48,024 nucleotides of DNA from Nitrospirota bacterium (GTDB taxonomy: Bacteria > Nitrospirota > UBA9217): assembly GCA_029858565.1 (NCBI GenBank), contig JAOUEV010000024.1, positions 1 to 48,024 of the forward strand, in the 5' to 3' direction. Below, one piece after another: positions 1,640 through 40,815 of this stretch (within the stretch, counting starts at the first letter, position 1; each line of letters starts with the position of its first letter). The position numbers and the translations under genes were made by a program. The notes under the pieces were generated by a model. The model worked only from the letters and a program-made list of their open reading frames with translations, was not told the origin of the DNA and ran no database searches.

Positions 1640-1717
1640 TTTCACCGCAGAGGACGCGGAGGAAAGCAAGGCATGAAGAATGAATTCTCCGCGCCCTCTG
1701 CGTCTTCGGCGGTGAAA
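1640..1717. repeat. Inverted tandem-repeat element, 9-mer type (GCAGAGGAC)
   Basis: TTTCACCGCAGAGGACGCGGAGG...CTCCGCGCCCTCTGCGTCTTCGGCGGTGAAA. Confidence 0.85.
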
Positions 1718-11158: not shown

Positions 11159-11230
11159 CAGGATTATTATGAACAAGGATTAATAGGATTAAGGATCAGA
11201 GGTCGTAATCCTGCTAATCCTCTAATCCGG
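11159..11230. repeat. Inverted tandem-repeat element, GGATTA type
   Basis: GGATTA x3-4 facing TAATCC x3 between hisC and hisB. Confidence 0.75.
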
Positions 11231-20518: not shown

Positions 20519-20589
20519 ATTGCGGATTTCGGATTGCGGATTGCAGATTGAACTGAAAAATCCGAAATCTACAATCCGCAATCCGCAAT
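20519..20589. repeat. Inverted tandem-repeat element, 7-mer ATTGCGG type
   Basis: ATTGCGG ATTTCGG ATTGCGG ATTGCAG...AATCCGA AATCTAC AATCCGC AATCCGC AAT. Confidence 0.9.
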
Positions 20590-20594
20590 CGAAC

Positions 20595-22818: not shown

Positions 22819-22869
22819 AATTGCGGATTGCGGAATGCGGATTAAAATCCGCAATCCGAAATCCGAAAT
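22819..22869. repeat. Inverted tandem-repeat element, 7-mer ATTGCGG type
   Basis: ATTGCGGATTGCGGAATGCGGATT-AA-AATCCGCAATCCGAAATCCGAAAT. Confidence 0.9.
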
Positions 22870-28353: not shown

Positions 28354-28362
28354 AAAAATCTA

Positions 28363-28445
28363 TTTAGACACTGAGGACACTGAAAAAATAGGAAAAAGCA
28401 ATAAGCAGAGTTACCAACGATTCTTCAGTGTCCTCCGTGTCAAAA
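28363..28445. repeat. Inverted tandem-repeat element, 9-mer type (sister of 10462-10542)
   Basis: GACACTGAGGACACTGA...TCAGTGTCCTCCGTGTC. Confidence 0.85.
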
Positions 28446-28457
28446 AACTGTTTTGCA

Positions 28458-33581: not shown

Positions 33582-33679
33582 TCTCGCGCAAAGACGCAAA
33601 GACGCAAAGGAAAGCCTTAAATTAGAAAACGGGTAAATGTTATTTGCCTTTCTTTGCGGCTTAGCGTCTTTGCGCGAGA
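33582..33679. repeat. Inverted tandem-repeat element, 8-mer CGCAAAGA type
   Basis: TCTCGCGCAAAGACGCAAAGACGCAAAG...CTTTGCGGCTTAGCGTCTTTGCGCGAGA. Confidence 0.9.
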
Positions 33680-34495: not shown

Positions 34496-35881
34496 TTATT
34501 GCTGCCCCGCGCCGCTCCCGGTCAGCTTCCCGGGATCGAGCAGCCGGTCCAGCTCTTCCCGTGAAAGGTCCGTCATCTCGGCCGCCACATCCCTGATCGG
34601 CCGGCCTTCCTTATATGCTTGCTTCGCGATCTCGGCTGCCCGGTCATAGCCGATCACGCTGTTCAGCGCCGTGACCAGGATGGGATTGCGGTCGAGCGAT
34701 GCCGCTATGCGGTCCCTGTTCACGGTGAACCCCGCGATCGCCTTGTCCGCAAAGAGCCGGCTCGCGTTCCCGAGCAGGGTGATGGACTGGAGCAGGTCGT
34801 GGGCGACCAGGGGCATCATGACGTTCAGTTCGAAGTTGCCGTGGGAGTTGCTGATCGCGATCGCCGCGTCATTCCCGATCACCCGGGCCGACACCATCAT
34901 CATCATCTCGCACATGACCGGGTTCACCTTGCCGGGCATGATGCTCGATCCCGGCTGGAGCGGCGGAAGGCTGATCTCTCCCAATCCCGCGAGCGGGCCG
35001 CTGTTCATCCACCGGAGGTCGTTCGCCATCTTGATGAACGATGTTGCCGCGGTCCTCAGCTGGCCCGAGAGCTCCGCTGCCGTGTCCAGGGTCGCCTGGG
35101 CCGCGAAGTGGTCCTGAGCCTCACGAAAAGGGATGCCGGTCCGCTTTTCCAGACGGGCAGCGATCTTCCGTCCGAAGCCCGCCGGGGCATTGATGCCGGT
35201 TCCGACCGCCGTACCCCCGATCGCCAGCCGGGCCAGCCGCGGCAGACAGGACTCGATGCGTTCGATCGATTGATGGACCTGGAACGCCCACCCGCCGATC
35301 TCCTGCGCCATCGTGACCGGCATGGCATCCATGAGATGGGTCCGGCCGGTCTTGACGATGTCGCCGAGCTCGGCTTCCCGTTTGCGCAGGGTCGATTCAA
35401 GGTGAGCGAGGGAAGGCAGAAGCAATTCCTTGAGCTGCAGGTAGGCGCTCACATGGATCGCCGCGGGGATCACGTCGTTCGACGACTGGCCGCTGTTCAC
35501 ATGGTTGTTCGGATGGGCCGCGGGTTCTCCCAGAGCCCGCGCACGAGAAGCGATGACCTCGTTGGCGTTCATGTTCGTGGAGGTTCCGGAGCCGGTCTGG
35601 AAGATATCGAGCGGAAAGTGGCTGTCCCATTTCCCTTCGGCGACCTCGAGCGCGGCCTCGCGAACGGCCCTTGCCGGTCCCGCGTCGATCAGGCCCAGCT
35701 CTCCGTTCTCTTCGGCAGCCGCGGCCTTGATCAGCCCCAGAGCACGGATAAAGACCCGGGGAAAGCCGATGCCGCTCACCGGGAAGTTCTCGACCGCCCG
35801 CTGGGTCTGGGCGCCGTAGAGCGCATCAACAGGGACTTTTATCTCGCCGAGGGAATCTTTTTCTATTCTATAGTCGGTCAT
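34496..35881 (-). CDS. fumC: Class II fumarate hydratase
   Basis: QTGSGTSTNMNANEV, GRTHLMDA, PGSSIMPGKVNP. Confidence 0.96.
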   Translation of the reverse strand: MTDYRIEKDSLGEIKVPVDALYGAQTQRAVENFPVSGIGFPRVFIRALGLIKAAAAEENGELGLIDAGPARAVREAALEVAEGKWDSHFPLDIFQTGSGTSTNMNANEVIASRARALGEPAAHPNNHVNSGQSSNDVIPAAIHVSAYLQLKELLLPSLAHLESTLRKREAELGDIVKTGRTHLMDAMPVTMAQEIGGWAFQVHQSIERIESCLPRLARLAIGGTAVGTGINAPAGFGRKIAARLEKRTGIPFREAQDHFAAQATLDTAAELSGQLRTAATSFIKMANDLRWMNSGPLAGLGEISLPPLQPGSSIMPGKVNPVMCEMMMMVSARVIGNDAAIAISNSHGNFELNVMMPLVAHDLLQSITLLGNASRLFADKAIAGFTVNRDRIAASLDRNPILVTALNSVIGYDRAAEIAKQAYKEGRPIRDVAAEMTDLSREELDRLLDPGKLTGSGAGQQ

Positions 35882-35885
35882 AGGG

Positions 35886-36001
35886 CAGTCGTAAGTCAGT
35901 CGTGAAACAGTCAAGAAGCAGTCGAGATGCAGTCTGGAACGTCATGAAACAGTCGTAAATCAGTCAAGATGCAGTCGTGAAGTTGTCATAGGTTGTCGAG
36001 A
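35886..36001 (+). repeat. Tandem array of about 11 copies of an 11-mer CAGTC-N6
   Basis: CAGTCGTAAGT CAGTCGTGAAA CAGTCAAGAAG CAGTCGAGATG...; inverted partial copy at 36221-36238. Confidence 0.9.
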
Positions 36002-36013
36002 GGCCGCCTATAA

Positions 36014-36214
36014 TCAGTCGGCATTCAAGTACTTCATGAAACCATTTATCAATTTCCCGGTTTCTAGAGCTGCATCATATGCTCCCTGGAATTCCTTCTT
36101 GGCAATATATCCGAGATCCAAAGCAACATAAAGCTGGCTCTGAACTTCGGCGGTGGAACCGAGAGAAATACCGAGGAAACGTTTGAATTCCTTATCGCCC
36201 GTTCGCGCAAATCC
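36014..36214 (-). pseudogene. 5'-truncated four-helix-bundle (23S rRNA IVP-like) protein gene
   Basis: Manual translation GFARTGDKEFKRFLGISLGSTAEVQSQLYVALDLGYI...LINGFMKYLNAD*; lacks the N-terminal half and a start codon; lower GC. Confidence 0.85.
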
Positions 36215-36235
36215 TGCTGTAAGACTGCTTTTCGA

Positions 36236-37654
36236 CTATCTCTCCGCCAATCCCGTCTTCCTCGCCGCCTCCGATACCGCGTGCGCTACCGCATGGACGA
36301 CCCGTTTCTCAAAGGGGCTCGGGACGATGTAGTCCTCGTGAAGTTCTTCGGTCTTTACCATATGGGCGATGGCGTTTGCGGCGGCGAGTTTCACTTCCTC
36401 GTTCACGCCTTTCGCGTGCACGTCCAGCAGGCCGCGGAAGATGCCGGGATAGGCGAGCATATTGTTGATCTGGTTCGGGAAGTCGGACCTGCCTGTTGCC
36501 ATGATCTTCACAAGCGGCAGCGCCACGTCGGGAGAGATCTCCGGGTCCGGATTCGCAAGCGCGAAGACAATGGGGTCCTTTGCCATGCCTTTAATGTCCT
36601 TGGCTGTGATCACGTTCGGCGCGGACACGCCGATGAACACGTTCGCGCCGGCCATGGCGTCGGAGATCGTGCCTTTGATCCTGCGGGGGTTCGTGATCTT
36701 CGCGAGCGCCGAGAGGTGAGGATTCATGTGCGTGCGTCTGCCGGCGTAGACCGTGCCCTGGCTGTCGCAGACCGTGATGTCCCTGATGCCGTAGGCCAGC
36801 AGGATCTTGGCGATCGCGGTGCCTGCGGCGCCCGCGCCGACCATGGCCACCCTGAACTTCCTGATGTCCTTCCTGAGCAGCCGGCCCACATTGATCAGCG
36901 CGGAAAGGGCCACGACCGCGGTGCCGTGCTGGTCGTCGTGGATCACCGGCATGGCCAGGGCCTTTCGGAGACGCATCTCGATATCAAAGCAGCGCGGAGC
37001 GGAGATGTCCTCGAGATTCATGCCGCCGAAGGGTGTGGCGATGTTCTTGACGGTCTCCACGATCTCGTCGGGGTCCTTGGTCCGGAGCGCGATGGGGAAG
37101 GCGTCGATATCCGCGAACTCCTTGAAGATCATGGCCTTGCCTTCCATCACCGGCATGGCAGCATCCGGTCCGATGTCACCGAGGCCGAGCACCGCGGTGC
37201 CGTCGGTGATGATGGCCACGGTGTTCTTCTTGATCGTATAGCGGTAGACGTGTTCGGGATGGTGAAAGATATCCATGCAGACCCGGGCGACCCCGGGAGT
37301 ATAGACCTGGGACAGGTCGCTCCGGTCGCGGATCTGCATTTTGCTCCGGATCTCGATCTTGCCGCCCTCGTGGGACGAGAAGGTGCGGTCCATGGTCTTC
37401 AGCACCCGTACGCCGCCCACGGCCCTGATCGAGGCGGCGATCTCTTTTTCATGCTCCGCGTCACGCGCGTCCACGGTCACGTCGCGGATGATCTTGCCCC
37501 GTTCCGCGCGCACGATGTCCACAGCGCCAAGATTGCCGCCCGCGATGCTGATGGCGGTCGCGATCTGGGCGAACTTGCCGATCACATTGTCGATCTCCAG
37601 GCGCATCTGGATGCTGTAGCTGGGGCTGGTGGAGCAGGTATAAGGTGCCTTCAT
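36236..37654 (-). CDS. NAD(P)-dependent malic enzyme with N-terminal ACT domain
   Basis: YTPGVA, DGTAVLGLGDIG, EGKA..FK, NLEDI.AP.CF, HDDQHGTA, ATGRSD.PNQ.NN; SD AAGGAG before 37654. Confidence 0.93.
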   Translation of the reverse strand: MKAPYTCSTSPSYSIQMRLEIDNVIGKFAQIATAISIAGGNLGAVDIVRAERGKIIRDVTVDARDAEHEKEIAASIRAVGGVRVLKTMDRTFSSHEGGKIEIRSKMQIRDRSDLSQVYTPGVARVCMDIFHHPEHVYRYTIKKNTVAIITDGTAVLGLGDIGPDAAMPVMEGKAMIFKEFADIDAFPIALRTKDPDEIVETVKNIATPFGGMNLEDISAPRCFDIEMRLRKALAMPVIHDDQHGTAVVALSALINVGRLLRKDIRKFRVAMVGAGAAGTAIAKILLAYGIRDITVCDSQGTVYAGRRTHMNPHLSALAKITNPRRIKGTISDAMAGANVFIGVSAPNVITAKDIKGMAKDPIVFALANPDPEISPDVALPLVKIMATGRSDFPNQINNMLAYPGIFRGLLDVHAKGVNEEVKLAAANAIAHMVKTEELHEDYIVPSPFEKRVVHAVAHAVSEAARKTGLAER

Positions 37655-39237: not shown

Positions 39238-39279
39238 ACATAGGAGTTCATTTTGCTTAAGCAAAATGAACTCCTATGT
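39238..39279. repeat. Perfect 42-bp spacerless palindrome
   Basis: ACATAGGAGTTCATTTTGCTT|AAGCAAAATGAACTCCTATGT, 21/21 pairs checked by hand. Confidence 0.95.
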
Positions 39280-40221: not shown

Positions 40222-40710
40222 ATGACCAAAAGCAGAGCATTCTATTCCAAAGGTATTAAGTTCGCGTGCCAGGGCTGCGGCGCCTGCTGCGCTGCCCGGG
40301 AACATCACACCTACGTCTACCTTTCCTTTGGCGACCGCAAGCGGTTTGCCGCCCGTCTGAAGATCACCACCGCGGAGTTCACCAGGAAATATACCGAGGC
40401 GTCCGACGGCTTCGTGCACCTCAAGGACCCGGAAAAGGACTGCCCCTTTCTGAAGGACAATCGCTGCATCGCCCACGAGGCGCGGCCCTGGCAGTGCCGC
40501 ACCTGGCCTTTCTGGCCCGAGAACATGCACCCCAAGGTCTGGGAGAGGGATGTGGCAGCGTTCTGTCCGGGCATCGGCAAGGGCAGGCTCTATACAGCTG
40601 AAGAGATCGACGAGATCATGGAGCGCAGGATGGAAGTAAAGGGAGAGGGGGATCAGTCCGGAGCTGCTGCTGAGACCGATCTGAAGAAACGGGAGAAACC
40701 GACAAAATAA
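40222..40710 (+). CDS. YkgJ family cysteine-cluster protein
   Basis: FACQGCGACC, CPFL, C..HEARPWQCRTWPFW, CPGIG.G. Confidence 0.9.
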   Translation: MTKSRAFYSKGIKFACQGCGACCAAREHHTYVYLSFGDRKRFAARLKITTAEFTRKYTEASDGFVHLKDPEKDCPFLKDNRCIAHEARPWQCRTWPFWPENMHPKVWERDVAAFCPGIGKGRLYTAEEIDEIMERRMEVKGEGDQSGAAAETDLKKREKPTK

Positions 40711-40815
40711 GGATTAACGGATTACAGGATTAGAGGATTACAGTACCTCATGGTTTCTTAATCCTTCAATCCTCATAATCCCGCCTCTTATTTGCTAATC
40801 CTTCCTTTGAATCCT
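40711..40815. repeat. Inverted tandem-repeat element, 8-mer GGATTANN type
   Basis: GGATTAAC GGATTACA GGATTAGA GGATTACA...TAATCCTT CAATCCTC ATAATCC...TAATCC..GAATCCT; fills the whole ykgJ-aat gap. Confidence 0.85.

Follow-up and report, generated by a model that had tools for sequence, protein, structure and literature searches.

The spacer between an NADP malic enzyme-like gene (maeB) and a class II fumarate hydratase/aspartase family gene (fumC, hereafter fumarase) of a Nitrospirota bacterium (NCBI GenBank assembly GCA_029858565.1) holds what is very probably the remnant, left by a deletion, of an element in which a small, seemingly selfish four-helix-bundle protein gene was bracketed by inverted tandem arrays. 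The DNA analysed comprises positions 1 to 48,024 of contig JAOUEV010000024.1 (the window); the genome to which it belongs is referred to as G000, and G001 and so on denote related genomes. The window copy is a remnant and not a gene, and comparison of homologous loci indicates that the inverted-array design is a rule for the four-helix-bundle family across many phyla. Overall, the locus is probably best explained as a decayed element resembling the intervening sequences (IVS) of 23S ribosomal RNA (rRNA), situated between protein genes, whose intact form may have had a promoterless gene read from host transcripts, arms cut by RNase III and a protein that binds the repeats.

The minus strand of 36014-36235 encodes the C-terminal 57% of a four-helix-bundle protein (PF05635/TIGR02436) without a start codon. 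Translated on this strand, 36014-36250 reads from the malic enzyme C-terminus (LAER) through the TAG stop codon of that gene into SKSSLTAGFARTGDKEFKRFLGISLGSTAEVQSQLYVALDLGYIAKKEFQGAYDAALETGKLINGFMKYLNAD and a second stop. The 73-residue open stretch after the malic enzyme TAG (SKSSLTAGFARTGDKEF…MKYLNAD, with its stop at 36014-36016) scores 52.8 bits against the Pfam model PF05635 (23S_rRNA_IVP; cut-off 33.8), covering positions 46-106 of 106, and 55.3 bits against the TIGR02436 model ('four helix bundle protein'; cut-off 24), covering positions 43-108 of 109. Because only C-terminal profile positions are matched, the remnant starts just past the NIAEG motif, which is where an original prediction, made from the window sequence alone, had placed it. 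A full-length PF05635 domain is not found at this locus, the N-terminal helices, the NxxE (NIAEG) motif and the start codon having been deleted. The program-made list of open reading frames (ORFs) holds only one 35-aa TTG ORF at the remnant, so the gene had indeed been passed over, and ORF-based annotation misses remnants of this type. The malic enzyme gene, the remnant and the fumarase gene all lie on one strand, with no sigma-70-like promoter or intrinsic-terminator-like site in 35600-36500 and no Rfam match in 35500-36600. A contig of run X1, produced by a second assembler, spans 35600-36500 with 0 differences; as X1 is possibly the sample of origin, this is not independent support. The locus is covered only in part by runs X2 and X3, and no RNA run was found to contain it. 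The remnant (36014-36238, minus strand) is in the malic enzyme reading frame with the TAG alone between them, and read-through would append 73 residues to the enzyme, an arrangement that may be chance (1/3).

A DNA search for the locus in 26 genomes (the window's own and 25 relatives) identified the same maeB-fumC gene order with a complete element in G012, a member of the same family but of a different genus. From the malic enzyme TAG, the G012 spacer consists of seven CAGTC units (period 11), a 28-nt leader, a 122-aa gene and five GACTG units, followed by a 4-nt gap to the fumarase ATG, the same gap that separates the array end from this codon (35879-35881) in the window. Predicted folding of the two G012 arms yields -76.0 kcal/mol, compared with -42.8 +/- 3.7 kcal/mol in 200 shuffles (z = -9.0), and the encoded ortholog matches the solved structure 2gsc at E = 2.7e-17; 2gsc and 2rld, its nearest relatives of known structure, have five chains each. 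The remnant is 70% identical to this ortholog in a 25-row alignment and 73% identical over the 66 shared codons.

The distance from the malic enzyme stop to the G codon of GFAR is 24 nt in the window versus 287 nt in G012, and DNA alignment of the two reveals a block of approximately 263 bp that is absent from the window. The deletion took all upstream units but 1.5, the leader and the first 56 codons. The stub that it left, TAGTCGAAAAGCAGTC, aligns with the first 1.5 of the units that G012 carries from the malic enzyme stop onwards, and the TAG of the stub (36236-36238) is the malic enzyme stop codon itself. The original prediction had described these 1.5 inverted units and had invoked a deletion to explain why the gene lacks its 5' half and one array is nearly gone, and the intact ortholog at the same site bears this out. 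Stem-forming terminal inverted repeats have thus been lost from the window, one arm having been cut to the 1.5-unit stub, while the downstream arm (8-11 units) is without a pairing partner and now serves as the fumarase leader. In the 66 codons that remnant and ortholog share, their differences (pN 0.16 at nonsynonymous and pS 0.80 at synonymous sites) indicate that most of the divergence arose under protein selection and that the deletion occurred recently compared with the divergence from G012. The silent-site difference between the two genomes (G012 locus L040) is 0.80 in the four-helix-bundle gene (36017-36214) versus 0.45 in the adjacent 200 malic enzyme codons (36239-36838).

The downstream arm is a regular tandem array, for which Tandem Repeats Finder gives a period of 11, 8.9 copies and the consensus CAGTCGTGAAA over 35886-35981. 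The pattern CAGTC-N6-CAGTC, with at most one mismatch, has 11 matches in the window versus 3.41 +/- 1.89 in shuffles, and 0 of 100 shuffles reach 11. Eight exact and about three degenerate CAGTC cores are present at the locus, in agreement with the approximately 11 units originally predicted.

The same spacer holds other material in closer relatives. In G001 (L041) and G002 (L039), which belong to the same genus as the window, malic enzyme and fumarase genes are separated by other non-coding fillers of about 350 nt and 210 nt that contain different short arrays, and no four-helix-bundle or GxxExxY match is listed on these contigs. A run X2 contig joins the two genes by 155 other letters. Judging from these sequences, the maeB-fumC spacer seems prone to turnover. 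The relatives also contain many more partial or interrupted matches to PF05635 and TIGR04256 (half-length profile cover, internal stops), so that decay like that in the window is common.

The bracketed architecture extends well beyond this locus. All four intact PF05635 genes of G000 lie between inverted arrays, with a unit that differs for each gene (Table 1). A wider sample comprised 80 loci encoding relatives of the G012 protein, drawn from named records of many phyla by single-protein queries, 74 of which had enough flank for a test in which the 200 nt leading up to the gene were aligned to the reverse-complemented 200 nt that follow and scored against shuffles. Inverted-repeat flanks (z >= 5) were found at 51 of the 74 loci and at 0 of 135 control positions shifted by 900 nt. 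The refutation set beforehand in the original prediction, that intact homologs would lack flanking inverted arrays, was therefore not borne out. The arms are mostly tandem heptamers (AGTCCAA, GGTTTCT, AGTTGCG and GGTTTGT are examples) with a median length of 32 nt, the upstream arm ending 33 nt before the ATG and the downstream arm beginning 14 nt past the stop (medians). Among 125 loci with a repeated core, the repeat period is 7 in 74, 8 in 15 and 11 in the G012 element only. The period near one helical turn to which the original prediction had drawn attention is therefore a peculiarity of this locus and not a trait of the family. Cultured carriers among the loci include Desulfacinum infernum DSM 9756 (L137, of the GGATTA type), Desulfacinum hydrothermale DSM 13146 (L051) and Thiohalocapsa marina DSM 19078 (L074), and L060 likewise comes from a named strain.

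Two other ways of detecting bracketed genes were rejected. A 5-mer occurring at least twice in both arms proved unspecific, with 17 of 62 controls passing, and the 125 of 144 loci that it recovered are not used as evidence. Pairing of arrays found 300-3000 nt apart by Tandem Repeats Finder mainly linked adjacent but independent hairpins on either side of ordinary genes, pilin-like genes and a tRNA among them, and gave no census of filled hairpins.

A second cargo family, GxxExxY (TIGR04256), a small PD-(D/E)xK-like protein, shares this design. G000 encodes seven GxxExxY genes (Table 1), five or six of which lie between inverted octamer arrays by eye, and the GxxExxY loci of G000 and its relatives reach z >= 5 in 27 of 34 cases versus 0 of 62 controls. 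Their arm units are octamers of the form CRCRRAGN. Octamers of this type also build many cargo-less hairpins in G000, and the arms of the window hairpin at 1640-1717 are almost identical to the GxxExxY brackets in G019 and G024 (L208, L210).

The proposal that protein clades track the repeat unit was examined with 144 loci by counting pairs with a common 6-mer that recurs in each arm and binning them by protein identity. Such pairs made up about 2% of 382 at less than 25% identity, less than 1% at 25-45%, 14% at 55-65%, 42% at 65-80% and 7/8 above 80%. Among cross-phylum pairs the counts were 13/1587 (less than 45% identity), 7/569 (45-55%), 49/457 (55-65%) and 11/39 (at least 65%), a trend matched by 0 of 1000 permutations, and the proposal is upheld. 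The clearest case is the GGATTA clade, whose 14 loci carry six phylum labels (Thermodesulfobacteriota, Actinomycetota, Nitrospirota, Aquificota, Chloroflexota and Bipolaricaulota) and without exception show two or more GGATT upstream and two or more AATCC downstream. The relatives of the G000 protein encoded on contig C123 share 53-63% identity, and all have GGATTA/TAATCC arrays. Silent sites are saturated at this level of protein identity and the unit is nevertheless kept, which points to selection on the unit sequence and not on pairing alone.

The units that flank genes may also be dispersed as arrays without cargo. Of 41 related genomes, just 2 contain three GGATTA units at spacings of 1-3 nt, namely G000 with 12 matches and G029 with 16, and no other genome among them has a GGATTA-clade protein (100% identity in G000, 57% in G029), the next matches (at most 53%) belonging to clades with other units. 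An alternative pattern, GGATT-N2-3, was dropped in favour of GGATTA because it mixed two unit types, and a reversed-pattern control is invalid for G029, since the reversed GGATTA-type unit is a rotation of its own repeat. Three CAGTC-N6 units were found at five loci in G012, comprising one filled and four cargo-less hairpins, at two loci in G001, in G000 at the window's locus and, as one unrelated perfect repeat, in G028; they were not found in the remaining 37 of the 41 genomes. G000 also has a weaker cargo-less CAGTC/GACTG hairpin (C85:38474-38574), which is apparently orthologous to a G001 hairpin (C131), and in these two the CAGTC cores are kept and the N6 spacers vary. In total, G000 has 2111 tandem-repeat rows, 285 of them of period 7 with at least three copies, and 64 adjacent inverted array pairs with a loop of at most 130 nt. 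The link between empty hairpins and a cargo protein that the original prediction had drawn is thus weakened: the two co-occur for GGATTA and for CAGTC in G012, but not in G010, in which arrays occur with no PF05635 match.

The hairpins have a consistent polarity. At 103 scored loci the 5' arm is G-rich in 84 and C-rich in 13, and in 48 cargo-less G000 hairpins a G-rich 5' arm is likewise more frequent than the reverse (34 versus 11). An inverted repeat reads alike on both strands, so this is a property of the hairpin, and its interpretation as an asymmetry of the gene strand was discarded.

The closest known counterparts are the IVS of 23S rRNA. In Coxiella, the passages on this element in PMC4990558 describe a decaying S23p ORF preceded by two or three tandem heptamers, their number differing among strains, and a terminal stem of 28 bp that RNase III cleaves. 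These IVS (with an S23p ORF; Coxiella, Leptospira, Xanthomonas) resemble the present element in having this protein family in a loop, a terminal stem, tandem units and ORF decay (PMC4990558). In contrast, the element described here lies between protein genes and not in helix 25 or 45 of 23S rRNA, both of its arms are tandem arrays with clade-specific units, and cargo-less copies are dispersed. Genes of the 23S_rRNA_IVP family have been reported wedged between cas genes (PMC3936711) and in rRNA insertions of bacteria of the candidate phyla radiation (CPR) (bioRxiv 10.1101/2024.02.27.582315), in passages that make no mention of flanking arrays. Full-text searches of openly accessible articles, without their supplements, turned up no paper in which four-helix-bundle or GxxExxY genes lying outside rRNA are flanked by inverted tandem arrays, and the architecture in such settings is apparently undescribed so far.

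The accessory protein Avd of diversity-generating retroelements (DGRs) provides a second comparison. Its pentameric barrel is called 'similar to S23 ribosomal proteins', and all five protomers grip an 11-bp RNA stem-loop, according to the relevant part of bioRxiv 10.1101/2023.10.23.563531; the kinship with Avd to which the original prediction had pointed is therefore in print, as is the binding of RNA by Avd. The RNA stem-loop binding of Avd makes repeat binding by four-helix-bundle proteins plausible. Unlike a DGR, the window remnant has no adjoining reverse transcriptase, template repeat or variable repeat, and Avd is not among the solved-structure sequence matches at E <= 0.001.

RAYTs, the proteins associated with repetitive extragenic palindromic (REP) sequences and their paired form, REPINs, are tyrosine (HUH) transposases, whereas the proteins considered here are PF05635 four-helix-bundle and TIGR04256 proteins and not HUH/Y1 transposases. 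The REP/REPIN and RAYT system (a subject of PMC3116915) is similar in that a gene lies between inverted short repeats, the repeat is dispersed as hairpins and its type follows the clade. This combination of flank and dispersal is seen here for GGATTA and for CAGTC in G012, and not for the ATTGCGG type or in G010. The repeats described here also differ in being tandem arrays rather than single palindromes, and their mobility is only putative.

Tandem heptamers of bacterial intergenic DNA, another type of which is the cyanobacterial short tandemly repeated repetitive (STRR) sequence, are to our knowledge unexplained, and we know of no function assigned to the S23p/23S_rRNA_IVP or GxxExxY families, both of which are large and present in many phyla. 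The heptamers of Beggiatoaceae are comparable in forming short intergenic arrays of 2-6 heptamers, often near start codons, and the TAACTGA heptamers are direct repeats (169 sets versus one inverted), as reported in the sections of PMC4679880 that describe them; the term 'four helix' is not in PMC4679880.

The mechanism proposed for the intact element has three parts. The four-helix-bundle gene, lacking a promoter of its own, would ride on host transcripts; the paired arms could be cut by RNase III, by analogy with rRNA intervening sequences; and a pentameric, Avd-like protein may bind its own clade-specific repeats. We give an even chance both to processing of the stem at the RNA level and, separately, to the idea that the encoded protein recognises the arrays by their sequence. 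The link between array and cargo protein is supported by comparative evidence and not proven.

Several observations weigh against this account. Co-orientation with host genes fits a promoterless gene read from host transcripts and suggests action in RNA, but the counts on which it is based (longest ORF on the same strand at 88 of 99 loci upstream and 69 of 90 downstream) come from crude ORF calls and not from annotation. Stem mismatches show no RNA-strand signature in 82 arm alignments, a test blurred by register slips in the tandem repeats: 130 mismatches would be G-U pairs in the sense RNA, 124 only in the antisense and 269 are transversions. The sense and antisense G-U counts being equal, pairing selected in the sense transcript is not visible. 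A value of z >= 5 is missed by 23 of the 74 homolog loci, several of them because the start-codon rule swallowed the upstream arm, and in the CAGTC type of G012 the N6 spacers are only partly complementary between the arms. Co-inheritance of gene and arms adds to the tracking of clade by unit and is not separable here. The nearest relative of the G012 protein in G001 (53% identity) has GTACC units, yet CAGTC arrays are present at two G001 loci. The pattern of three tandem GGATT[G/T]C-type units matches 111 times in G010 (490 contigs, 90% complete), a genome with over 100 arrays and no PF05635 match, and the most frequent units in G000 (ATTGCGG type, 49 arrays) flank none of the four-helix-bundle genes of G000 itself. 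Four GxxExxY matches were recorded in G010.

It is possible, though on the unlikely side, that the arms act as a stem and nothing more, either in RNA processing by RNase III or as an insulating structure or protective 5'/3' duplex around a passenger gene, with unit tracking clade through co-inheritance or co-transfer. The good pairing of the arms (the G012 fold and the 51 of 74 loci) and the 88 of 99 loci co-oriented with the upstream host gene agree with this, as do the excision of the Coxiella rRNA IVS by RNase III, shown according to the passages cited above (PMC4990558), and the abundance of arrays in G010, where no four-helix-bundle gene was found. Selection on pairing alone should, however, let the sequence drift, yet the 14 GGATTA loci retain their unit across six phylum labels at 53-63% protein identity, and CAGTC cores are kept as the N6 spacers vary, including in the apparently orthologous empty hairpins of G000 and G001; the lack of an excess of sense-strand G-U-compatible mismatches also counts against such a stem.

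An unlikely alternative places the system on DNA, in the manner of REPIN/RAYT: the four-helix-bundle and GxxExxY proteins would bind the arrays at the ends of their own element and spread or maintain matching cargo-less hairpins together with host factors or with GxxExxY as the nuclease. This theory agrees with the dispersal of the flanking units, with the restriction of GGATTA arrays to the 2 of 41 genomes that have the matching clade, with the one filled and four empty CAGTC hairpins of G012, with the likeness between the window hairpin at 1640-1717 and the GxxExxY brackets of G019 and G024, with the strand-symmetric mismatches and with the differing maeB-fumC fillers of G001, G002 and the run X2 contig. 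Against it, we know of no catalytic activity in four-helix-bundle proteins, and the retention of orthologous positions across genera (maeB-fumC in G000 and G012) and of a shared downstream gene start in L020/L024/L025, L021/L026 and L011/L018 argues for slow turnover; the co-occurrence counts are small, with two lineages for GGATTA, and G010 has its more than 100 arrays and no PF05635 match. Quite improbable is an independent origin of the two components, in which array hairpins born by slippage are generic intergenic structures and small genes insert or survive in their loops without a functional tie. The sheer number of repeats in G000 (2111 rows, 285 of period 7, 64 adjacent inverted pairs), its commonest units without a matching gene and the G010 arrays would all fit; the cross-phylum tracking of clade by unit, the confinement of GGATTA to two genomes and the separate periods of two unrelated families (7 versus 8) would be left unexplained.

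The IVS-like element between protein genes remains the preferred explanation. A broader idea, which we put forward only tentatively, is that four-helix-bundle and GxxExxY proteins read the repeats that bracket their own genes and maintain or spread matching cargo-less hairpins in a REPIN/RAYT-like manner, the rRNA IVS being a special case. If this is true, such a system would have left its footprint in many of the heptamer and octamer arrays that are so far unexplained in bacterial intergenic DNA. The architecture ties together the S23p family, the GxxExxY family and tandem heptamers, through genes that occupy the loop of an array hairpin, run in the direction of the host genes and have a clade-specific repeat code, and rRNA intervening sequences would then be only one of the places where a broader class of element has landed. 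The window locus is a dead copy, whose value is as a pointer to a general design common to two protein families with no known function.

Table 1. Positions of the features of the maeB-fumC locus, of other arrays in the window and of array-bracketed gene families in the same genome (window coordinates unless a contig is given).
Feature	Position	Strand	Description
Fumarate hydratase/aspartase family gene (class II), downstream host	34499..35881	-	TIGR00979 547 bits, under equivalog cut-off 664.75
Downstream (3') arm	35886..35981	-	GACTG-N6 on gene strand, CAGTC-N6 on + strand; eight exact cores, period 11
Spacer, stop codon to regular array	35982..36013	-	holds two degenerate TGTC units
3' part of four-helix-bundle gene	36014..36214	-	66 codons from GFAR plus stop 36014-36016; no start codon, no ribosome-binding site
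Deletion junction	36215..36222	-	bases between last CAGTC of stub and first retained codon; exact breakpoint not resolvable
Upstream (5') arm stub TAGTCGAAAAGCAGTC	36223..36238	-	1.5 inverted units
NADP malic enzyme-like gene, upstream host	36236..37654	-	NF009501 354 bits, under curated cut-off 1178
Cargo-less hairpin	1640-1717		CGCAGAGG octamers
Cargo-less hairpin	20519-20590		ATTGCGG heptamers
Cargo-less hairpin	22820-22869		ATTGCGG heptamers
Cargo-less hairpin	28354-28454		GACACTGA octamers
Cargo-less hairpin	33582-33679		CGCAAAGA octamers
GGATTA-type array	11160-11228
GGATTA-type array	40709-40743
PF05635 gene	C123		unit GGATTA, spacings ~16 nt
PF05635 gene	C7		unit GACGAGAG
PF05635 gene	C94		unit AAGAATTAAG-like
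PF05635 gene	C93		unit AGTGCGG heptamers
GxxExxY gene	C142:9750-10103
GxxExxY gene	C58:12095-12436
GxxExxY gene	C14:144546-144887
GxxExxY gene	C115:27786-28130
GxxExxY gene	C142:57080-57430
GxxExxY gene	C100:32807-33154
GxxExxY gene	C62:104226-104570

The genes around the remnant are sdhA, sdhC, fumarase, malic enzyme and glutamate dehydrogenase. Elsewhere in the window, 39238-39279 forms a perfect palindrome of 21+21 nt without a loop (ACATAGGAGTTCATTTTGCTT followed by its own reverse complement), which is unlike the array hairpins.

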